A stretch of DNA of 57,904 nt. Source: an uncultured Candidatus Saccharibacteria bacterium (GTDB taxonomy: Bacteria > Patescibacteriota > Minisyncoccia > Portnoybacterales > UBA2143). How positions within the stretch are numbered: the stretch's first letter is position 1; every line of letters starts with the position of its first letter. This document shows, in pieces, positions 6,351 through 40,441 of this stretch. Location of the stretch: the NCBI GenBank assembly GCA_964472495.1, contig CAYYLD010000003.1, positions 1-57,904 of the forward strand, in the 5' to 3' direction. The translations under genes and the position numbers were made by a program. The notes under the pieces were generated by a model, which was given only the letters and a program-made list of their open reading frames with translations, ran no database searches and was not told where the DNA came from.

Positions 6351-8615
6351 GTGGATATCATTAAAGAGCCAATAAAATCAGATAAAGAGAAAAAACCACT
6401 TGAACCGGCCGATGTTTTAAGTTCGGATAAAAGATCTTTTATTCGGACCATGGAGAAAGACTTAGCTGTCTTAAAGAAAAAGGGCCCGGCCGAGCCAGGT
6501 CGGCCAGTAGCTGGGTTAATTAGAGGAGGACCGCCTAAAAAGGTGGTTCCGCCGAGTCCGGCTGAACCATTTAAGAGAGCAGTCCCGCCAGCCGGTTTGC
6601 CTGTGTTTGAACCCGCTAAAAGGCCAGAGATACCTTCACCGCCGCCGGCCCCTCGGCCAACTTTGCCGGTCGCGCCGCCTCAACCAGCCGAAGGATTAAG
6701 AAAAGAGGAAGAGATTAAAAAGAGGATTGAGGAAACGCGAGAAAGGATTGAAGAGGCCAGAAGAAAAGCGGTGGCCCGGGAAAAAGCGGAAAAAGAGAGA
6801 AAACCAGAGGGGGTCGGAAAGGAGATAGAGAAGTTCCGGAAACCCAAAATAGTCAAAAAGAAAAAACCTCTTTTAAGATTCGTTTTCATTAGTTTAGCTG
6901 TCGTCGTGGTTATCGGTGGTCTCGGCGGGTTTATTTACTGGTGGAATTATCTGCGGGTAGTCACGCCGGTTTTCCATTACGAATGTCAGGATAATTTATG
7001 TCTACAGGTAGAAGGAGAAGAGGAGGACCAGTGTCAGATTGACGCTGATTGTCAGCCAACCGAGCCAACTATGCCGGCCTCGCTAATTCCGGTAGCGGAA
7101 ACCAAGGCCATTGAATTAGCTATTGGGCAGGAGGATTTACTGGTCGATGTATTGAAAACAGCAGCCAGCCAAGCACAGGCGGCCAATACTTTCAAACAAG
7201 TTTTGGTCAAATTAGTCAGTCAGACAGAAAAGAAATACGCTGATTTGAATACTTTGTTAACTGCTTTGGGAGTTAGTTTGCCTGATAATGTTCTGGCGGC
7301 CGCGGCAGCTAGCCAGGTGGAGGGCGATAATTATACTTTGTTTTTATATAATCAAACGGCCGGCAATCGCTTAGGTCTGATTATTGAAATGGCTCAAAGC
7401 GAAACTTTGGTGGCTGACCTGAAAAATTGGGAAGCGACCATGGTTGGAGACCTTAAGCCGCTTTTCCTGGAAGACGAAGTACCGGCCGCTTTTACCGAGG
7501 GATTTCAGGATAATATTTATCATGATGTAGCCATTCGTTATCTTAATTTCCCTGACCCGGGTTTGAGCATTGATTACGGCATTGTCGCCGGCCAGTTAAT
7601 TCTGGCCACCTCCCGGGAAAGTATGTATGCGGCTATCGAAGCCCTATTGGCGGCGGAAATAGATATTTCTGATTGGCAAACTTATCATAATGAAGAATAT
7701 GGATTTGAGATAAAATATCCGGAAAATTTTATTGTCCAGGAAGATTGCGGCATAATAGATTGTGAAGGAGTTAGTTTTTGGGATGAAGATTTTTTATCTT
7801 CCCGTGATACTTCGCTCAATAAAATAGTTACTTTTAATGTTTTTGTCACAGCTAGCATTCAAGATGCTGAAAAATATATCGGAGGACATTATAGTTCGCC
7901 AGCCGGGCCAGGGGCTAAGACCTACGAATTTTTAAATCCAGAAATGATTACGATAAATCAGAATGAATTTCTGAAGAAATATTATAGAGATATCGTTCCT
8001 TCTGAAGAATATGACGCCTTTAATTTTTCTTCTTGGCACATAGAAAATAAAGGAACTATCTATACGCTGATATACAATAATCAAATAACCATGAATCCCG
8101 AACCTCACGAACAGTTGTTTAACCGGATTCTCTCTACTTTCAAATTTGTCCCAAGCGAGGAAAATTATAGAGCCGAATCTTTTAGTTGTGGAGCTGGTTT
8201 AGAATGTTCTTTTGAAATTGTAGAAGATTCTTCTCTTGGCTCGTTAGCATTAGCAGAATTAACGATATATGACGAGGAGGGGAATGTTTATATAATAAGA
8301 GGATCAGAGGCTTGTTTAAATGGAATTAGCATAACGAAAGACGAAGAGCTTGATATAAATCAAATCTTAAGCAATAACGAAGTAGCACTAGCTGAAAAAT
8401 TTATTAAAATACAGTTTGCTGATACTAGCCCAAAACAAGTAGTTATGGGAGGTAGTATTAAATGTTCTGAAATTCCGTCATATGTCTTTGGCTATTCAAT
8501 AAAGGAGAATGAATTTTTCTTGATACCTTCTTATGCAGAAGACGACGTTATTATATTAGGTCATTTTTTAAGTGGTGAGGATATAAGCTTGCTCCCTGTG
8601 AAAGTAGTCGAATAA
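6351..8615 (+). CDS. Large modular single-pass membrane protein: Pro-rich/charged N-terminus, TM helix, Cys-rich motif, PsbP-like module
   Basis: One TM (FVFISLAVVVVIGGLGGFIYWW); WQTYHNEEYGFEIKYP...ILSTFKF is typical of CPR PsbP-like surface domains. Confidence 0.6.
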   Translation: MDIIKEPIKSDKEKKPLEPADVLSSDKRSFIRTMEKDLAVLKKKGPAEPGRPVAGLIRGGPPKKVVPPSPAEPFKRAVPPAGLPVFEPAKRPEIPSPPPAPRPTLPVAPPQPAEGLRKEEEIKKRIEETRERIEEARRKAVAREKAEKERKPEGVGKEIEKFRKPKIVKKKKPLLRFVFISLAVVVVIGGLGGFIYWWNYLRVVTPVFHYECQDNLCLQVEGEEEDQCQIDADCQPTEPTMPASLIPVAETKAIELAIGQEDLLVDVLKTAASQAQAANTFKQVLVKLVSQTEKKYADLNTLLTALGVSLPDNVLAAAAASQVEGDNYTLFLYNQTAGNRLGLIIEMAQSETLVADLKNWEATMVGDLKPLFLEDEVPAAFTEGFQDNIYHDVAIRYLNFPDPGLSIDYGIVAGQLILATSRESMYAAIEALLAAEIDISDWQTYHNEEYGFEIKYPENFIVQEDCGIIDCEGVSFWDEDFLSSRDTSLNKIVTFNVFVTASIQDAEKYIGGHYSSPAGPGAKTYEFLNPEMITINQNEFLKKYYRDIVPSEEYDAFNFSSWHIENKGTIYTLIYNNQITMNPEPHEQLFNRILSTFKFVPSEENYRAESFSCGAGLECSFEIVEDSSLGSLALAELTIYDEEGNVYIIRGSEACLNGISITKDEELDINQILSNNEVALAEKFIKIQFADTSPKQVVMGGSIKCSEIPSYVFGYSIKENEFFLIPSYAEDDVIILGHFLSGEDISLLPVKVVE

Positions 8616-8618
8616 TTT

Positions 8619-8638
8619 TAATGCCCAAGATTCCGATT
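8619..8638 (+). repeat. 20-bp direct repeat, left copy (TAATGCCCAAGATTCCGATT)
   Basis: Identical to 9559..9578. Confidence 0.9.
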
Positions 8639-8648
8639 TAAGTTAAAA

Positions 8649-8954
8649 ATGAAGCAAATAAAAAAATCAAATAAATTACCAGAGTTTTTACAGCCATTTT
8701 TATGGTCGGTAAAAGTCAATGAGTTGGATTTAAAAAAAGATAAGGTTTATATTATTAACCAGATTTTGGCGTATGGTAATATGGAAACCTTAAGATGGTT
8801 ATTTTCTAACTATTCCGATAATGAGATAAAAATGATTTTCTTAGAGCATTCAACAAGGATATATAGAGAATCTGCTTTTAATTTTGTTAAAAATATTCTT
8901 TTAGACATTAAAAGGCCGCTTAATTCTAACAAATATGTCGCAACTCCACTTTGA
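8649..8954 (+). CDS. DUF6922-like putative antitoxin
   Basis: FLWS...LDLKKDKVYIINQILAYGNMETLRWL pattern; overlaps the downstream nucleotidyltransferase gene. Confidence 0.7.
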   Translation: MKQIKKSNKLPEFLQPFLWSVKVNELDLKKDKVYIINQILAYGNMETLRWLFSNYSDNEIKMIFLEHSTRIYRESAFNFVKNILLDIKRPLNSNKYVATPL

Positions 8955-9558
8955 TATTTTGGATAAATCCTACGAAGAAGTTTTTCAAAGATTAAAGGTT
9001 TTTAAAAAGGAAGCTGTATTATCGGGCGGCACCGCACTTTCTTTACAAATTAAACATCGCCATTCTTATGATTTTGATTTATTCTTTAGCAAAGAATTAA
9101 GCCGGAATTTAATTGTAGAGGCGAGGAAGGCAATAAAAATAAAGGAAGTTGGTTTAAATACCCAAAAGCAAATAAATCTGATAACAACTAATAATATCTT
9201 ATTGAATTTAGTAAGTTATCCATTTAAACCTCTTTTCGGGAAAGTAATAACTTCTTCATTGCCTCTTTTGTCTATCAAAGATATCGCCCTTGATAAAGCT
9301 TACACCATTGGTAGACGAGCTGTTTGGCGAGATTATGTAGATATTTTTTTTCTGCTTAAAGATAAATATATCAGTTTGTCAGAAATTTCTAAACTGGCTT
9401 TAAAAAAGTTTGGTCCGGAATTTAATGAAAGATTATTTTTAGAACAATTAGTTTATTTTAAAGATTTAGAAGCCACGAAAATTTCCTTTATAAAAGAGAA
9501 ATACTCTAATAAACAAATACAGGGATTTTTACGGAACGCAGTGAAAAAGATTGAATAA
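8935..9558 (+). CDS. AbiEii/AbiGii-family nucleotidyltransferase toxin
   Basis: LSGGTALSLQIKHRHSYDFDLF, K...IGRRAVWRDYVD motifs. Confidence 0.88.
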   Translation: MSQLHFDILDKSYEEVFQRLKVFKKEAVLSGGTALSLQIKHRHSYDFDLFFSKELSRNLIVEARKAIKIKEVGLNTQKQINLITTNNILLNLVSYPFKPLFGKVITSSLPLLSIKDIALDKAYTIGRRAVWRDYVDIFFLLKDKYISLSEISKLALKKFGPEFNERLFLEQLVYFKDLEATKISFIKEKYSNKQIQGFLRNAVKKIE

Positions 9559-9578
9559 TAATGCCCAAGATTCCGATT
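9559..9578 (+). repeat. 20-bp direct repeat, right copy, containing the start of the 9561 gene
   Basis: Identical to 8619..8638. Confidence 0.9.
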
Positions 9579-10253
9579 AAAATTATGAAAGGTCAGTCGG
9601 CTGAAAAAGTGGCTGATGAATTGAAAGTAGATTTGCGGAATAATAGTGTTCAGCCGAAACAAAAACAGCCATCAAAAAAATGGCTGTTTTTGGGAATTCC
9701 AGGTTTGATTATAGTTGTCTTGTTAGTCAGCTGGCTTATTTTCAGTCAGGAAGAAATGCCTTTTGCTGGTTTAATTCCTCAAGAGGCAGTTATTTTCAGT
9801 TTAATTGACCAAACTGGTTTTTATCAACAGACCGCTCCTTTCAGTCAGTTTTTAAAAGATAGTAATTTTTACGGCCAAAGCGTTATTGACAAGCTTAGCA
9901 ATTATCTGACCGAGGCCAATTTGAATTTTGCTAAAGATATTCAGCCGCTTTTTAAGAAAGAAATGGCTTTTATCCTGTTGCCGGCTAATCAAGAGGTTAA
10001 ATTCCCTTTTATTTTAATTTTGGAAAAAGAGGTTTCCGGATCTAAAATAAGCCAAATTTTGGAAAAGATTGAACCGAAACTTAAACAGGACTATAATTTC
10101 TCTTCCCAAACCTATCGCCAGATTAGGATAACCATTTTAGAACCGCTGACCGACTCAAGCAATTATCTTTATGGTCAGATGGAAAATTATTTTGTTATCA
10201 GTAATTGTCAAAATTCTTTAGAAAAAATAATTAACTCCATCATTAACAAATGA
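9561..10253 (+). CDS. Membrane-anchored hypothetical protein (DUF3352-like)
   Basis: N-terminal TM (WLFLGIPGLIIVVLLVSWLIF) followed by a soluble domain. Confidence 0.55.
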   Translation: MPKIPIKIMKGQSAEKVADELKVDLRNNSVQPKQKQPSKKWLFLGIPGLIIVVLLVSWLIFSQEEMPFAGLIPQEAVIFSLIDQTGFYQQTAPFSQFLKDSNFYGQSVIDKLSNYLTEANLNFAKDIQPLFKKEMAFILLPANQEVKFPFILILEKEVSGSKISQILEKIEPKLKQDYNFSSQTYRQIRITILEPLTDSSNYLYGQMENYFVISNCQNSLEKIINSIINK

Positions 10254-10254
10254 T

Positions 10255-10274
10255 TGTGAATAAGTTGTGGATAA
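10255..10274 (-). promoter_or_regulatory. Two tandem DnaA-box matches
   Basis: TGTGAATAA (10255-63) and TGTGGATAA (10266-74) match TTATNCACA on the minus strand. Confidence 0.45.
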
Positions 10275-10367
10275 AGAGATTGATTCTCGGCCCTCTCTTT
10301 ATTTTAATGGCTTAATATAGCCATTTTTCGAATTATTGCTTAAAAGGATAAAAAGGAAAGTTTAAAG

Positions 10368-10396
10368 TTGACAAGAACAATTTCTGATCTCATAAT
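10368..10396 (+). promoter_or_regulatory. Sigma70-type promoter
   Basis: TTGACA-17 bp-CATAAT. Confidence 0.6.
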
Positions 10397-10634
10397 AGTA
10401 TTAGAGTCTTTTGCTGACTATTCTGGCTTTAAAGTAGTTCTTTAATTTCTTTTGACTTTTTCTAGATTCTTTACTGGAGGATGAAGAAGGAGGATAACAA
10501 GTCTGCCAAAGGTAAAAGAATTTAGGAAACAGACCAATAGTGAGCAGAGACAAAAATTGCCTTCTTGGAATCAAAGATAAAATATAATGGCTGTTTCTCG
10601 TCTTTGACGGGAATACCTGTATTCTAAAAAGGCA

Positions 10635-10689
10635 AAAGGGGTCTTGAGCCCTTTGAAGTAACAACTAACGGGCACATCAAGGCCCCTTT
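10635..10689 (+). other. Intergenic stem-loop
   Basis: AAAGGGGTCTTGA/TCAAGGCCCCTTT 13-bp stem with inner GCCC/GGGC. Confidence 0.5.
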
Positions 10690-10792
10690 AATATATCATA
10701 ATTTTGGTAATTAGTCAATGAAAAGTTGGCTTTTTTTTATTTTTTGGTGAAGTATTGTTGACATTATCTTTTTATGTTAAAATAGGAATAAC

Positions 10793-27000: not shown

Positions 27001-27648
27001 ATGATGAAAACAGTCATCAATAAAGTAATCAAAATCTTAATTCTTTCTGATTTCACTTTAATTAGCGGAATCGGTTTTATCTCTCCTATCTTTGCTATTT
27101 TTTTGACTAGCCAGATTCAAGGCGGCAGTGTCAAAGTAGCTGGTTATGCGGCGGCTATTTATTGGGTTATTGTGTCTCTGGTTGTTATCCCCTTTGGCCG
27201 GTATTTAGATAAAAATCATGGCGAGAAAGACGACCTTTGGTTTATTATTATCGGCAATAGTTTAGCTGCTTTGGCTGTTTTCGGTTATCTCTTTTCTCGT
27301 CTTCCCTGGCATATCTATCTGCTCCAAGCGATTTATGCTTTTGGCATGGGAATGAATATTCCCGGCTATACGGCTATCTTCACCAGGCACATCGATAAAG
27401 GCCGCGAGGCCTTTGATTGGAGCGTTAGAAGCGCTTTGGCTGGCATAGGAGCCGGGACGACCGGTGCCTTAGGAGGAATAATTGCTCAACGATTTGGCTT
27501 TGATGCTCTTTTCGTCGGCGTCAGTATCTTTATTCTGTTAAGTGCCTTTTGGCCTTTGTTTATCGCTAAAGAAATGATTCCTAGAGATAACCGGGTCGTT
27601 AAAGTGCCGGAAACTAAAGGCATCCAACCATTCCAAACAAAAGGATGA
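27001..27648 (+). CDS. Half-size (about 6 TM) MFS-type transporter
   Basis: FISPIFAIF, GRYLDK loop motif, hydrophobic helices. Confidence 0.75.
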   Translation: MMKTVINKVIKILILSDFTLISGIGFISPIFAIFLTSQIQGGSVKVAGYAAAIYWVIVSLVVIPFGRYLDKNHGEKDDLWFIIIGNSLAALAVFGYLFSRLPWHIYLLQAIYAFGMGMNIPGYTAIFTRHIDKGREAFDWSVRSALAGIGAGTTGALGGIIAQRFGFDALFVGVSIFILLSAFWPLFIAKEMIPRDNRVVKVPETKGIQPFQTKG

Positions 27649-27740
27649 AAAACTTGGAATTGGCTCAGATTTTTTATCTACCACAGCCCCTCCCACCACC
27701 CGTTCTTTTTGCTCCGCAAAAAGAACAATACTTAAGGTAA
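27645..27740 (+). pseudogene. Orphaned duplicate of the polX 5' end (MKNLELAQIFY...) running into a palindromic insert
   Basis: First 33 nt match 27790..27822 (MRNLELAQIFY) with 5 mostly synonymous differences; ATGA-coupled to the MFS stop. Confidence 0.7.
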
Positions 27741-27789
27741 TTTTTATTCGTCCCGTAATTTTACGGGAAATAAATACCAACAGAATCGC

Positions 27790-29535
27790 ATGAGAAACTT
27801 AGAACTCGCCCAGATTTTTTATCAAATGGCTGATTTGTTAGAGATGAAGGAAATTTCTTTTAAGCCGCGGGCTTTTGAAAAAGTGGCCCGGGTTTTAGAA
27901 TCTTTAGAAAAGGATGTCGCCGATATTTATCGGGAAGGCGGCTTGGCCGCCTTAGAAAAGATTCCCGGGGTCGGTAAAAATATTGCCAAGAGGGTTGAAG
28001 AGTTTATCAAAACGGGCCGGATTAAGGATTACCAAAAACTAAAAAAGGAATGCCCGGTTGATTTAGAATCATTGATGGCTGTTGAGGGTCTCGGTTCACA
28101 AAAAATTAAAGTTCTTTACAAGAAGCTGAAAATCAAGAACCTTAGGGATTTGGAAAAGGCGGCTAAAGCGGGGAAGATAAGAAAGCTAGAGGGCTTTGGT
28201 CAAAAGAGCGAAAAGAATATCTTGCAGGGAATTGCTTTTGTCAAATCAAGTAAAGGAAGATTTTTGCTTGGTTTAATTTTGCCGGCCGTTAGAGAAATAG
28301 TCAGTCAGCTTAAAAATCTGCCCGAAACAGGCAAAGTTGAAGTAGCTGGTTCAATCAGACGAATGAAAGAGACCATTGGCGATATTGATATTCTGATTAC
28401 TTCAAATAAACCGGACAAAGTGATGAATTTTTTTGTCCGGATGCCTGCCTCGCCTGACGGCGGGCAAGACGGGCCTGAAGTAGTCAAGGTTTGGGCCAAG
28501 GGACCGACTAAATCGTCTGTTCGTCTTAAAGACGGCTTTGATTGCGATTTGAGAGTTATCAAAAGAGAGAGTTTTGGCGCCGCTTTGCAATATTTTACCG
28601 GCAATAAGGACCACAACATTCTGACTCGGCGTTTGGCCATCAAGAAAGGATTAAAATTGAATGAATACGGTATTTTCAGGGGCAGAAAGAGAATAGCCGG
28701 CAAAAATGAAAAAGAGGTTTATCAAACCATCGGCCTGCCCTATATTGAACCGGAATTGAGAACCAACAGCGGCGAAATTGAAGCGGCCTTGGCTGGTCAG
28801 CTGCCTAAAATAATTGACTATAGCGATATAAAGGGAGAGACACATTGTCATACTAATTGGAGTGATGGAGTTGAGACGATTGCCCAGATGGCCAAGGCAG
28901 CTAAAAAAATGGGTTATCGATATATAGTCATTACTGACCACGCCGGCTTTTTGAAGATAGCCCACGGCTTAGACGAAAAGCGCCTCTTGAAACAAATGGC
29001 TGAAATTGATAGAGTTAATCGACTGGTTTCCGGGATTAAAATTCTTAGGGGTTGCGAGGTCGATATTAAAGATGATGGTTCTTTAGCCATTAAGGACGAA
29101 GTTTTAGCCAAGTTGGACATTGTTCTGGGAGCTATTCATTCCAGTTTTAAAATGAGCAGAGCAGATATGACTACAAGATTATTACGAGCAATCAAAAATC
29201 CTCATATTGATATTATTGCTCATCCGACCGGTCGGCGTATTCAAAGGAGAGAAAGTTATCAATTCGACTTTGGTAAAATTTTTAAAGCGGCTAAGGAAAC
29301 CAAGACCGCTTTGGAAATTAACGCTCATTTTGACCGATTGGATTTGAAAGATACAGACGCTCGACAGGCCGTCCAGGCAGGTGTTAAACTGACTATCGGC
29401 ACGGATGCTCATAGTCCGCAGCACTTACCAATAATAGAGTTGGGCATTGCTCAGGCCCGCCGCGGCTGGGCGACAAAAAAGGATATTTTGAATACCCGTC
29501 CTTTAAAAGATTTTTTAGATTATTTTAAAAAATAG
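27790..29535 (+). CDS. polX: DNA polymerase X / PHP 3'-5' exonuclease
   Basis: HhH (IPGVGK), AGSIRR.KETIGDIDIL, YFTGNK, PHP HCHTNWSDG, TDH, GTDAH. Confidence 0.93.
   Translation: MRNLELAQIFYQMADLLEMKEISFKPRAFEKVARVLESLEKDVADIYREGGLAALEKIPGVGKNIAKRVEEFIKTGRIKDYQKLKKECPVDLESLMAVEGLGSQKIKVLYKKLKIKNLRDLEKAAKAGKIRKLEGFGQKSEKNILQGIAFVKSSKGRFLLGLILPAVREIVSQLKNLPETGKVEVAGSIRRMKETIGDIDILITSNKPDKVMNFFVRMPASPDGGQDGPEVVKVWAKGPTKSSVRLKDGFDCDLRVIKRESFGAALQYFTGNKDHNILTRRLAIKKGLKLNEYGIFRGRKRIAGKNEKEVYQTIGLPYIEPELRTNSGEIEAALAGQLPKIIDYSDIKGETHCHTNWSDGVETIAQMAKAAKKMGYRYIVITDHAGFLKIAHGLDEKRLLKQMAEIDRVNRLVSGIKILRGCEVDIKDDGSLAIKDEVLAKLDIVLGAIHSSFKMSRADMTTRLLRAIKNPHIDIIAHPTGRRIQRRESYQFDFGKIFKAAKETKTALEINAHFDRLDLKDTDARQAVQAGVKLTIGTDAHSPQHLPIIELGIAQARRGWATKKDILNTRPLKDFLDYFKK
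28444..28473. repeat. 30-nt hairpin insert (family B, CCTGCC-type) in frame in polX
   Basis: CCTGCCTCGCCTGACGGCGGGCAAGACGGG encodes PASPDGGQDG; stem TGCCTCGCC/GGCGGGCA. Confidence 0.65.
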
Positions 29536-30660: not shown

Positions 30661-31896
30661 ATGAAAAGATTATTTGTTTTTCTGTTGGTATTATTTGGTT
30701 TTTGTTTCTTGGAAATCGGGATAATTAATGCTGTGAGTACTCCAGGCACTCTGAGGTGGACATTTCAAACTAAGGGTTGTGTGCAATCCTCTCCAGCCAT
30801 AGACTCCGACGGCACAATCTATATCGGCTCGAATGACCACAATGTCTACGCCGTCAATCCTGATGGAACGCTCAAGTGGGAATTTGTTACGGGTGGTCTA
30901 ATACATTCCTCTCCAGCCATAGACTCCGACGGCACAATCTATATCGGCTCGAATGACCACAATGTCTACGCCGTCAATCCTGATGGAACGCTCAAGTGGG
31001 AATTTGTTACGGGTGGTGGAATAGATTCTTCGCCAGCCATAGGCCTTGATGGCACTATCTATGTTGGTTCATATGACCACAATGTCTATGCCATCAATCC
31101 AGATGGTACTAAAAAATGGGAATTTTGGGCCGGTTATAAGGTTTCATCGTCTCCAGCAGTAAGATTTGACGGCATGGTCTATATTGGTTCCGATTGCGAC
31201 AGGCTTTTTGCTATCAACCAGGATGGAATTTGTGTGTGGAATTTTATAGGATTAGACATTCGCTCCTCTCCGGCTATAGATTCTGATAATACGGTCTATA
31301 TTAGCTCGGCTGATGATAAGATCTATGCTTTCAACCCTGACGGGACGCTCAAATGGGAGTTTGCTACTGGAAGTGGCTGGGACCTTGAGTGGGCAATATC
31401 CTCTCCGGTCATTGGAACAGATAATACAGTTTATGTTGGCTCGTATGATGGAAATGTCTATGCCATCAACCCTGACGGAACGCTCAAATGGGAGTTTCTC
31501 ACTGGAGCTAAGGTACGTTCTTCGCCGGCCATAGGCCTTGATGGCACGATCTATGTCGGCTCACGTGATGACAAGGTATACGCCATCAACCCTGACGGCA
31601 CTCTCAAATGGGACTTTACGGCTATAGCAGTCTATTCCTCGCCAGCTATTGGAGCTGACGGTACTATCTATATGGGAGCGGATGATGGGAAGTTATACGC
31701 GATATACGGAGATTCAGGAGGATTAGCAGATTCGCCTTGGCCTATGTTTGGTCATGATTTGAGACATACCAGTAGCGGCGGAAATAATCAGGCTCCAATT
31801 GACAATGGAGGAAATGGTGATAATGGACATCTTACCACCTCAAGCGACTTGGATAATGATGGCGGATGTTTCGTTTCTATAGTAGCCTTACCATAA
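30661..31896 (+). CDS. Secreted PQQ-like (BamB-type repeat) beta-propeller protein with GGCF tail
   Basis: About eight SSPAI.xDGTIYxGSxDxxVYAINPDGTLKWxF repeats; signal peptide; start at ATG 30661. Confidence 0.88.
   Translation: MKRLFVFLLVLFGFCFLEIGIINAVSTPGTLRWTFQTKGCVQSSPAIDSDGTIYIGSNDHNVYAVNPDGTLKWEFVTGGLIHSSPAIDSDGTIYIGSNDHNVYAVNPDGTLKWEFVTGGGIDSSPAIGLDGTIYVGSYDHNVYAINPDGTKKWEFWAGYKVSSSPAVRFDGMVYIGSDCDRLFAINQDGICVWNFIGLDIRSSPAIDSDNTVYISSADDKIYAFNPDGTLKWEFATGSGWDLEWAISSPVIGTDNTVYVGSYDGNVYAINPDGTLKWEFLTGAKVRSSPAIGLDGTIYVGSRDDKVYAINPDGTLKWDFTAIAVYSSPAIGADGTIYMGADDGKLYAIYGDSGGLADSPWPMFGHDLRHTSSGGNNQAPIDNGGNGDNGHLTTSSDLDNDGGCFVSIVALP
30787..31017 (+). repeat. Exact 111-bp tandem duplication with 120-bp period
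   Basis: 30787..30897 is identical to 30907..31017. Confidence 0.92.
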
Positions 31897-39925: not shown

Positions 39926-40441
39926 ATGGCTTTATTAGACAGATTAAAGAAGAAAATCAAAAAAGAGGAACCTGCCAAGGGTGGACCTGTCTCCGGCGGG
40001 AAAGAAAAGAAAGAGAAAGTTGAGAAATCTGCCAGAGGCAGACCCGCTTTTGGCGAGAAAGAAAAACCTCAATTAAAAGAAGAATCTTTAGTCAGTCCGA
40101 AAGAAGCCGAAAAAGCAAAGCCCGAGAAAATTATTGCCAAACAAGTTCCTCAAGCCTATCGATTAATTAAAGAACCGCAGATTACCGAAAAGGCGACTTT
40201 TTTGAGTGACCAAAACAAGTATGTTTTTAAAATTTCTTCCCGGGCTAATAAGACGGAAATCAGGAAGACGATTGAGGCGCTTTACGGCGTCAAAGTAGTT
40301 AAGGTTCATTTAATTCATGCGGCGGCCAAGAGAAGACGGTTAGGACGCAGTCAGGGCTGGCGCGGTGGCTTAAAAAAGGGCTTTAAGAAAGCAGTGGTCA
40401 CTTTAGCTCAGGGAGAAAAAATAGAATTATTGCCGAGATAA
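39926..40441 (+). CDS. rplW: 50S ribosomal protein L23 with long N-terminal extension
   Basis: [26 protein letters not shown]. Confidence 0.95.
39971..40000. repeat. Family A repeat in rplW (copy 1)
   Basis: CCTGCCAAGGGTGGACCTGTCTCCGGCGGG encodes [10 protein letters not shown]. Confidence 0.75.
40028..40057. repeat. Family A repeat in rplW (copy 2)
   Basis: TCTGCCAGAGGCAGACCCGCTTTTGGCGAG encodes [10 protein letters not shown]. Confidence 0.75.

Follow-up and report, generated by a model that had tools for sequence, protein, structure and literature searches.

A putative toxin-antitoxin cassette without a recombinase gene, inserted at a gene junction of a Patescibacterium and flanked by copies of its target

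The closest known precedent for the locus described here is the "insertion with long target duplication" of restriction-modification complexes (Nobusato et al. 2000, Gene 259:99; Furuta, Abe & Kobayashi 2010, NAR, PMC2853133). The known cases come mostly from naturally competent species and their mechanism is unknown; the authors proposed DNA breakage by the restriction-modification cargo as the cause (PMC2853133). Two reviews on toxin-antitoxin systems also use the term "long target duplication", citing the restriction-modification phenomenon by analogy only. The subject of the present analysis is a cassette of about 0.92 kb in contig CAYYLD010000003.1, a stretch of 57,904 nt from a salt-marsh metagenome that is called the window in what follows. 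It consists of a DUF6922 gene and a short AbiEii/MenT-type nucleotidyltransferase gene, a putative antitoxin and a putative toxin, and it is inserted precisely where two conserved genes of equal orientation adjoin in an uncultivated Patescibacterium (Table 1).

In several aspects the locus is reminiscent of the restriction-modification cases. In both, the insert is a small addiction-type complex, and neither it nor its immediate surroundings encode an integrase or transposase; it is present in one genome while relatives have an empty single-copy site, and direct repeats of variable length duplicate the target, often spanning a translation start or stop and leaving the target genes intact. There are also clear differences. 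The cargo is here a DUF6922 and AbiEii nucleotidyltransferase pair; with a putative toxin-antitoxin pair in place of restriction-modification genes, the insertion cannot be explained by the cargo cleaving DNA. The perfect repeat of 20 bp is shorter than the criterion of more than 30 bp used for the restriction-modification cases (PMC2853133), and a length of 45 to 48 nt is reached only when mismatches and a 3-nt gap are allowed. Finally, the host is a Patescibacterium, and the two copies of the target look like hybrids of diverged alleles. No paper naming DUF6922 was found in the searchable literature.

The flanking repeat has at its heart the 20-mer TAATGCCCAAGATTCCGATT, which is present in just two copies in the window, both on the + strand (8619-8638 and 9559-9578); no third copy emerges even when up to 3 mismatches are allowed. 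Dinucleotide-preserving shuffles give an expectation of 0.02 matches, and none of 100 shuffles contained two or more. With gaps, the similarity extends over about 48 nt (8598-8645 versus 9541-9585) at a score of 24.6, the maximum among the shuffles being 15.8; in this alignment, GTGAAAGTAGTCGAATAATTTTAATGCCC...TTA on the left faces GTGAAAAAGATTGAATAA, a 3-nt gap and TAATGCCC...TTA on the right. The original prediction, made from the sequence by itself, was that the duplication brackets only a DUF6922-like and an AbiEii gene, and indeed the two exact copies enclose only these two open reading frames (ORFs), both of which are recognized by Pfam. It also held that the left copy reads MPKIPI-stop shortly before the antitoxin gene, which is borne out by the codons ATG CCC AAG ATT CCG ATT TAA at 8621-8641, 7 nt ahead of the ATG at 8649. 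A scan for relic copies of the 330 candidate ORF starts in the window yielded two outliers (29/36 and 28/36), one of which is the cassette locus, with all other starts at or below 23/36.

The empty site is found in relatives. The gene order PNPase, upstream gene, DUF3352-like gene, DksA-type protein and ComM is kept in 42 related loci, drawn from metagenomes and species-representative genomes, and in none of these syntenic loci is there a DUF6922 or AbiEii match. The cassette-free relatives include the nearest ones (82%, 71% and 69% protein identity) as well as distant clades. The DUF3352-like protein has retained a length of about 229 aa and the start MPKIPIK in 42 homologues from Patescibacteria, one of which is named Candidatus Portnoybacteria; the right copy is the real gene start, as had been claimed, and its N-terminus MPKIPIK is shared by 24 homologues. 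In many relatives the upstream gene ends with ...STFKFIE-stop (...TTTATTGAATAA), followed by a 5-nt spacer and then ATGCCnAA[A/G]ATTCCnATTAAA, and the consensus of the empty site, ...TTTATTGAATAATT[C/T]AAATGCCnAA[A/G]ATTCCnATTAAA..., is collinear with both copies in the window. The left copy matches this single-copy junction from GAATAA to about codon 10, with Lys7 changed to a stop, and the right copy matches it from ATTGAATAA onward, with a spacer that is 3 nt shorter. The sequence ATTGAATAA is identical to the ancestral end of the upstream gene, and it forms the final codons and the stop of the toxin gene. Because both copies are collinear with the single-copy junction, the last two codons and the stop of the toxin gene are most likely derived from the target. 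An empty site is also present in a relative that co-occurs in the marsh: a low-depth contig matches 8610-8649 with 3 mismatches and continues with AGGCGAGCTGGCGGCTGATAAAGTGGCTGA, encoding MPKIPIKVKKGELAADKVA.

As the 42 related loci lack the cassette and have a single-copy junction that matches the repeat, the cassette is a lineage-specific insertion accompanied by target duplication. The duplicated segment most likely measured about 45 bp originally, from the last codons and the stop of the upstream gene to around codon 10 of the downstream gene, and 20 bp of it are still identical. Both host genes are intact, since the junction is present on both sides of the cassette. The insert also stands out by its composition: its GC content is 28.7%, against a window median of 41.8%, and it is the lowest of all 920-nt stretches (rank 1 of 1,140). 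The idea of a cassette of about 0.94 kb that had entered a gene start and restored it is therefore upheld, at a length of about 0.92 kb, by the 42 empty loci, the empty site of the co-occurring relative and the lowest GC content. The low GC content of the DUF3352-like gene and of the intergenic region behind it was considered as a sign of co-import as well and was rejected; cassette-free relatives are equally low there, so that it is a property intrinsic to the locus.

The upstream gene shows variation of its own. Its residues 1-436 are encoded at 47.6% GC and its residues 437-754 at 33.9% (25.7% at third codon positions; 7659-8615 of the window). Beyond residue ~436 there is a variable C-terminal extension, relatives L011, L043 and L044 having different domains or none there. 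In the window, the protein continues beyond STFKF, the usual C-terminal motif, with an additional domain of about 155 aa; this second variable spot adjoins the cassette.

The structure of the locus does not depend on a single assembly. The cassette is present in all ten independently assembled JGI and Logan contigs that encode an identical downstream protein, and all contigs of the species, from 12 runs and 10 assemblies, carry it; one run from 2025 holds a slightly different strain. Per-run contigs of the runs with higher coverage span the locus at 6-34x depth without a joint at the repeats, and the runs with lower coverage, which yield fragments of the locus only, likewise have none there. 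Nor was a joint at the repeats found when the contigs of 16 runs were aligned to the locus. Since independent assemblies (10 contigs, 12 runs) reproduce the repeat structure, it is not the result of misassembly. Within the population a non-synonymous polymorphism segregates in the toxin gene, 9389 C>A (S152Y), with A in most runs and C in the window and two runs; residue 152 is a variable position in the family. Excision by recombination between the repeats, as originally envisaged, is only a possibility. A skip from 8649 to 9598 (X14), taken up as a candidate excision product, proved to be a contig of another co-occurring relative with an uninterrupted gene.

With regard to its gene content, the cassette can be compared with AbiE and with the MenAT systems of Mycobacterium tuberculosis. 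The AbiEii gene product exceeds the curated threshold of its Pfam family (52.9 bits, cut-off 22.5, E 6.2e-14), and nine AbiEii models of PADLOC match the 207-aa protein (best E 7.1e-8). An AlphaFold model based on 35 homologues reaches a predicted local distance difference test (pLDDT) score of 94.2, and its Foldseek matches are all nucleotidyltransferases: JHP933 (E 5e-8), MenT4 (1.3e-5) and MenT1 (1e-4). The glycine motif G31-G32-T33 and the aspartates D46/D48 of the catalytic DxD motif are invariant across the 35 homologues. No significant match was obtained with the AbiEii profile among the PDB sequences. As modelled, the 207-aa protein is a member of the AbiEii/MenT fold family, and it may be regarded as the toxin of a putative pair in which growth inhibition and neutralisation are predicted only. 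The partner is less easily placed. No significant match to PDB was found for DUF6922 at the sequence level, its single-sequence model is all-helical (pLDDT 70) and gave no meaningful structural match, and the protein has no AbiEi match in PADLOC or NCBIfam, Pfam giving DUF6922 only. Its gene lies directly upstream of the AbiEii gene and overlaps it at 11/11 cassette loci; on gene order alone, DUF6922 is the putative antitoxin.

The resemblance to AbiE and MenAT thus comprises the AbiEii profile, the MenT4/MenT1/JHP933 fold, the conserved nucleotidyltransferase motifs and a two-gene operon in which the partner gene is located upstream and overlaps. In contrast to these systems, the toxin is short and has no match in PDB at the sequence level. 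Classical AbiE is autoregulated from its own promoter. Here, no promoter-like site precedes the pair and the partner is a helical DUF6922 protein of about 100 aa instead of a COG5340-type winged-helix AbiEi. With a partner other than AbiEi, the system does not qualify as a classical AbiE pair.

The cassette appears to have been built into the transcription unit of its host. No site resembling a promoter or terminator was detected between the cassette and either flanking gene. The two genes of the cassette share 20 nt, and the toxin gene stops 2 nt before the restored start. These features, the abutting stops and starts and the relic ORF point to read-through from the host operon combined with translational coupling. 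The cassette would then have no promoter or terminator of its own and be read as part of the operon, which is in line with the original suggestion that it borrowed host expression signals. The relic ORF of six codons is a likely translational-coupling leader for the antitoxin gene, and the toxin stop, by abutting the restored start, may permit translational coupling of the downstream gene. A counterpart exists in the nearest relative of the cassette (locus L053), where a relic ORF of 12 codons ends 6-9 nt before the ATG of its DUF6922 gene.

The insertion is not an isolated case. Homologues of the toxin, about 210 aa in length, number more than 2,320, with 74% identity for the nearest one. Ten other distinct cassette loci were compared with the window; as no two share a genomic context, 11 targets are represented. 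At L053, a repeat of 46 nt in all, 22 bp of it perfect, was taken from the start of the cassette's own downstream gene, encoding a PKD protein. The repeat at L060 (45 nt in all, 20 bp perfect) covers the promoter region of the downstream pheS gene up to its start codon, whereby antitoxin gene and pheS each own a copy; the copies consist of two identical blocks around a diverged spacer. At L057, the repeat is 150 nt long and 69% identical, and corresponds to the 5' end of the downstream transketolase gene, while at L054 it is a 59-nt relic of a toxin-gene 3' end, located 120 nt upstream. The check that had been proposed, a search for the same cassette at other gene starts, is positive. A similarity of 32 nt at L070 is marginal; with a score of 21.4 against 18.6 for a gene-start null it was counted as doubtful. 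Loci L055, L061, L062, L066 and L074 have no flanking repeat.

The longest exact flanking matches at ten of the 11 loci (the window and nine more) are 20, 22, 12, 9, 11, 20, 9, 8, 8 and 14 nt; the eleventh, L074, has none. As a control, a pseudo-cassette of 910 nt was placed 5,791 times in the same kind of genomes. A perfect flanking repeat of at least 20 bp is found for 3/11 cassettes and in 0/5,791 control placements; 14 nt were attained in 0.1% of the controls and 16 nt in none. Since each repeat is derived from its own target and the lengths differ, there is neither a conserved att site nor a fixed transposon duplication. Insertion with a target copy may therefore be a recurrent route of movement for the DUF6922-AbiEii family, at gene starts and at promoters. 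The original description of the repeats as att-like needs to be divided accordingly: a copy of the target is carried along, and the repeats differ per locus and are no conserved recombinase site.

Some of the loci have further peculiarities. To the left of the L070 cassette lie about 50 nt of the 3' end of pheS, 91% identical to the L062 site, where a cassette that is 81% identical to that of L070 sits between pheS and pheT. From this match it follows that the L070 cassette moved and dragged along a piece of its former flank. A syntenic empty site for L053 was sought via the contig of its nearest homologue (L073, 60% identity), which proved unusable, the upstream gene being unrelated. No AbiEii relatives were found in viral contigs or in plasmids. 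At L066-L069 (3410-4039), a second, fragmented AbiEii gene (27% identity) is situated directly downstream of an intact cassette, either as a tandem or as a degenerate cassette.

How the cassette reached its site can be approached through laboratory insertion-duplication of the Campbell type, in which circular DNA with a short chromosomal fragment gives direct repeats equal to that fragment. For genes to survive such integration, the fragment has to extend across a gene end, and this would account for repeats covering starts or promoters. On balance it seems somewhat probable that the two genes form a horizontally acquired addiction or defence cassette which carried a copy of the target, was integrated by host recombination in the Campbell manner and was kept by toxin-antitoxin retention. 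According to this reading, one Patescibacteria lineage would have acquired the 0.92-kb cassette, devoid of a recombinase, by horizontal transfer, together with the cassette's own short copy of the junction from another lineage. After uptake of the DNA, host recombination would have caused a single Campbell-type crossover inside the identical core of 20 bp, between the chromosomal junction and the cassette-borne one (toxin end, relic junction, antitoxin start). Two reciprocal hybrid repeats would be the outcome, and the toxin-antitoxin pair would then promote retention through addiction. Unlike in the laboratory procedure, no circular form was observed here, and the natural equivalent is only proposed.

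Two observations speak for recombination between diverged target copies. In the window, the copies have 0/20 differences in the core versus about 5/14 in the adjoining tail, and they differ in the spacer as well (TTTTA versus TA). The tail of the left relic, tAAGTTAAAAA, represents a K-V-K-K allele type found in distant relatives and in the empty site of the co-occurring relative, while the right copy and the three nearest relatives have the K-I-x-K type (AAAAT[TC]A[TG]GAAAGG). The two copies look like reciprocal hybrids of two diverged alleles, as a single crossover within the shared core would yield. At L057, the 44 differences between the copies are distributed 8:8:28 over the codon positions, and on this ground they reflect the divergence of functional orthologues and not the decay of a relic. 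It is the combination of the hybrid alleles in the window and the codon pattern of L057 that favours recombination over plain duplication followed by decay. Furthermore, these bacteria carry competence genes, and comM is located 1.7 kb downstream of the cassette.

Several points weigh against integration of a carried target copy. The allele-type argument in the window comes down to about 3 nucleotides in an AT-rich tail, and the L057 pattern could be explained by a later allelic replacement of the functional copy. No flanking repeat is detectable for 5/11 cassettes, and the pheS relic to the left of the L070 cassette is not predicted by a simple circle model. The contigs of 12 runs, a kind of data that hides rare variants, contained neither a circular form nor an excision junction nor an empty allele of the species. 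Lastly, the model does not explain how a cassette first captures a new target copy.

The main rival is a simple long target duplication that arose in place: linear DNA would have been joined illegitimately into a staggered break of about 45 nt, followed by fill-in, and the copies would have mutated later (AAA to TAA, a 3-nt deletion, the tail). We regard this as possible, at a probability well short of even. The anatomy agrees with that reported for restriction-modification systems, with long repeats of variable length, often over translation starts or stops, and no mobility genes (PMC2853133); the empty sites in relatives and the variation in repeat length among loci fit equally. What such a duplication accounts for poorly is the distribution of the differences. 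Later mutation would have to spare the core entirely while altering the adjoining tail in such a way that the allele of another clade is recreated, the third-position excess at L057 goes beyond what a neutral relic would accumulate, and the two identical blocks of L060 flank a spacer that has diverged.

Integration by a recombinase acting in trans is improbable. Islands that integrate in tRNA genes, and phage 21 and e14 in icd, bring along a replacement for the end of the gene they target, encode an integrase and always use the same att site. The present locus shares with them the duplication of a gene end that leaves the gene intact, as well as diverged alleles with an identical crossover core (in the window and at L057). 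It differs in that there is no recombinase, that the 5' end or the promoter is duplicated, and that each family member has a different target. Cases of integration in tRNA genes are also discussed in PMC2853133. If the 20-mer were the core of attL and attR for a tyrosine or serine recombinase, one would expect a perfect core with imperfect arms and a restored target gene, as with elements that enter gene ends, and both are observed. Nevertheless, neither the cassette nor the 6 kb to its left and right contain a recombinase or transposase gene, the neighbours there being S15, NYN, PNPase, DksA-type zinc finger, ComM, LysM-CHAP, S20, RuvA and FemAB; the claim that there is no integrase was thus correct. 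Moreover, the repeats of related cassettes have no sequence in common and measure anything from 20 to 150 nt, even where the AbiEii proteins are 74% identical, and the 11 cassettes occupy 11 different targets.

A non-autonomous transposon resembling a miniature inverted-repeat transposable element (MITE), mobilized in trans and leaving the repeat as its target-site duplication, would likewise be a small element between direct repeats without a mobility gene. It is nevertheless very unlikely, as no terminal inverted repeat pairs the cassette ends, the duplications (20 to 150 nt, different per locus) are much longer than is usual for transposases, and the cassette boundaries fall inside coding ends and differ from locus to locus. 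For integrase-dependent elements, transposons and integron cassettes, the defining features that were looked for are absent, and the cassette belongs to none of these types. That the cassette is ancestral and was lost from all relatives by recombination between the direct repeats, which would leave exactly the observed empty site, or that the repeat arose by chance or as an assembly artefact, is hardly credible in view of the 42 cassette-free relatives from the nearest to distant clades, the lowest GC content in the window, the 0/100 shuffles and 0/5,791 controls, and the agreement of 10 assemblies and 12 runs on the structure.

Table 1. Coordinates of the cassette, the duplicated junction and the adjoining host genes in the window
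Feature	Position	Strand	Remarks
Upstream host gene, secreted or membrane protein, 754 aa	6351..8615	+	Stop GAA TAA (8610-8615) at left edge of duplicated junction
Left copy of duplicated target junction	8598..8645	+	Perfect core 8619-8638; collinear with the empty site of relatives, GAATAA through ~10 codons of downstream gene
Relic gene start, 6-codon mini-ORF MPKIPI-stop	8621..8641	+	Lys7 AAA to TAA; ends 7 nt before antitoxin ATG
DUF6922 gene, putative antitoxin/partner, 101 aa	8649..8954	+	Pfam PF21956, E 2.8e-12; overlaps toxin gene by 20 nt
Short AbiEii/MenT-type nucleotidyltransferase gene, putative toxin, 207 aa	8935..9558	+	Pfam PF08843; stop 2 nt from restored start of next gene
Right copy of duplicated junction	9541..9585	+	Perfect core 9559-9578; ATTGAATAA at 9550-9558
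DUF3352-like membrane protein gene, intact target gene, 230 aa	9561..10253	+	Pfam PF11832; right copy is its start

Other features of the window deserve mention. The second outlier among the ORF starts is a duplicated gene start at 27639-27823, where ATGAAAAACTTGGAATTGGCTCAGATTTTTTATC (27645) opens an ORF of 31 aa that overlaps the stop of the gene at 27001-27648. This copy is 29/34 identical to the true start (27790) of a 581-aa PolX/PHP-type gene, with differences that are mostly of a synonymous type, and the 111 nt between the copies contain two hairpins and no ORF. The relic may be the scar of a lost cassette, left by the same process as at 8619/9559, or a small element. Another repeat (D9, 52902/53622), considered as a gene-start copy, turned out to be a motif within the ThrRS gene.

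Inside the DUF3352-like ORF (codons ~33-44), a perfect 13-bp hairpin at 9660-9692, CAAAAACAGCCAT N7 ATGGCTGTTTTTG, is followed by a U-run. It is kept, synonymous sites included, in about 18/22 relatives, with G-U or compensated changes in three, and could be an intragenic attenuator or a site acting at the DNA level. Between the DUF3352-like gene and dksA, the region 10254-10792 is conserved at the nucleotide level in relatives whose flanking proteins are 59-71% identical. It contains an invariant promoter-like TTGACA-17-CATAAT (10368-10396), conserved GC-rich stems, a T-run at ~10720-10735 and a second invariant promoter before dksA. There is no Rfam match for this region, which looks like an unannotated, probably structured non-coding RNA of about 330 nt. 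Furthermore, direct repeat units of 120 nt (4-6 copies, 62-87% identical) form an array at 30787-31626 that presumably represents a repeated coding domain, and four copies of a GC-rich palindromic motif of 32 nt (TCTGCCAGAGGCAGACC...GGCGAGAA type, 66-81% identical) at 39971, 40028, 42501 and 47298 are possibly repetitive extragenic palindromic (REP)-like or terminator elements.

Chromosomal toxin-antitoxin modules move often, and the route they take outside phages, plasmids, integrons and transposons is largely unknown. The locus provides an example that is resolved to the base and has empty sites, with the same footprint recurring in a cassette family of more than 2,300 homologues. With a cargo that does not cut DNA, host recombination together with selection becomes a more likely cause of long target duplication than the activity of the cargo. 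The locus also illustrates that the tightly packed operon of a tiny genome can take up a selfish cassette with both neighbours unharmed. On a more tentative note, it could be imagined that DUF6922-AbiEii constitutes a large family of recombinase-less mobile addiction modules in Patescibacteria, which use a captured gene start or promoter as a "portable att" for homologous recombination by the host after uptake, each integration regenerating the repeats and supplying host expression signals. If true, this would be a general and so far undescribed answer to the question of how toxin-antitoxin systems move without mobile-element genes.

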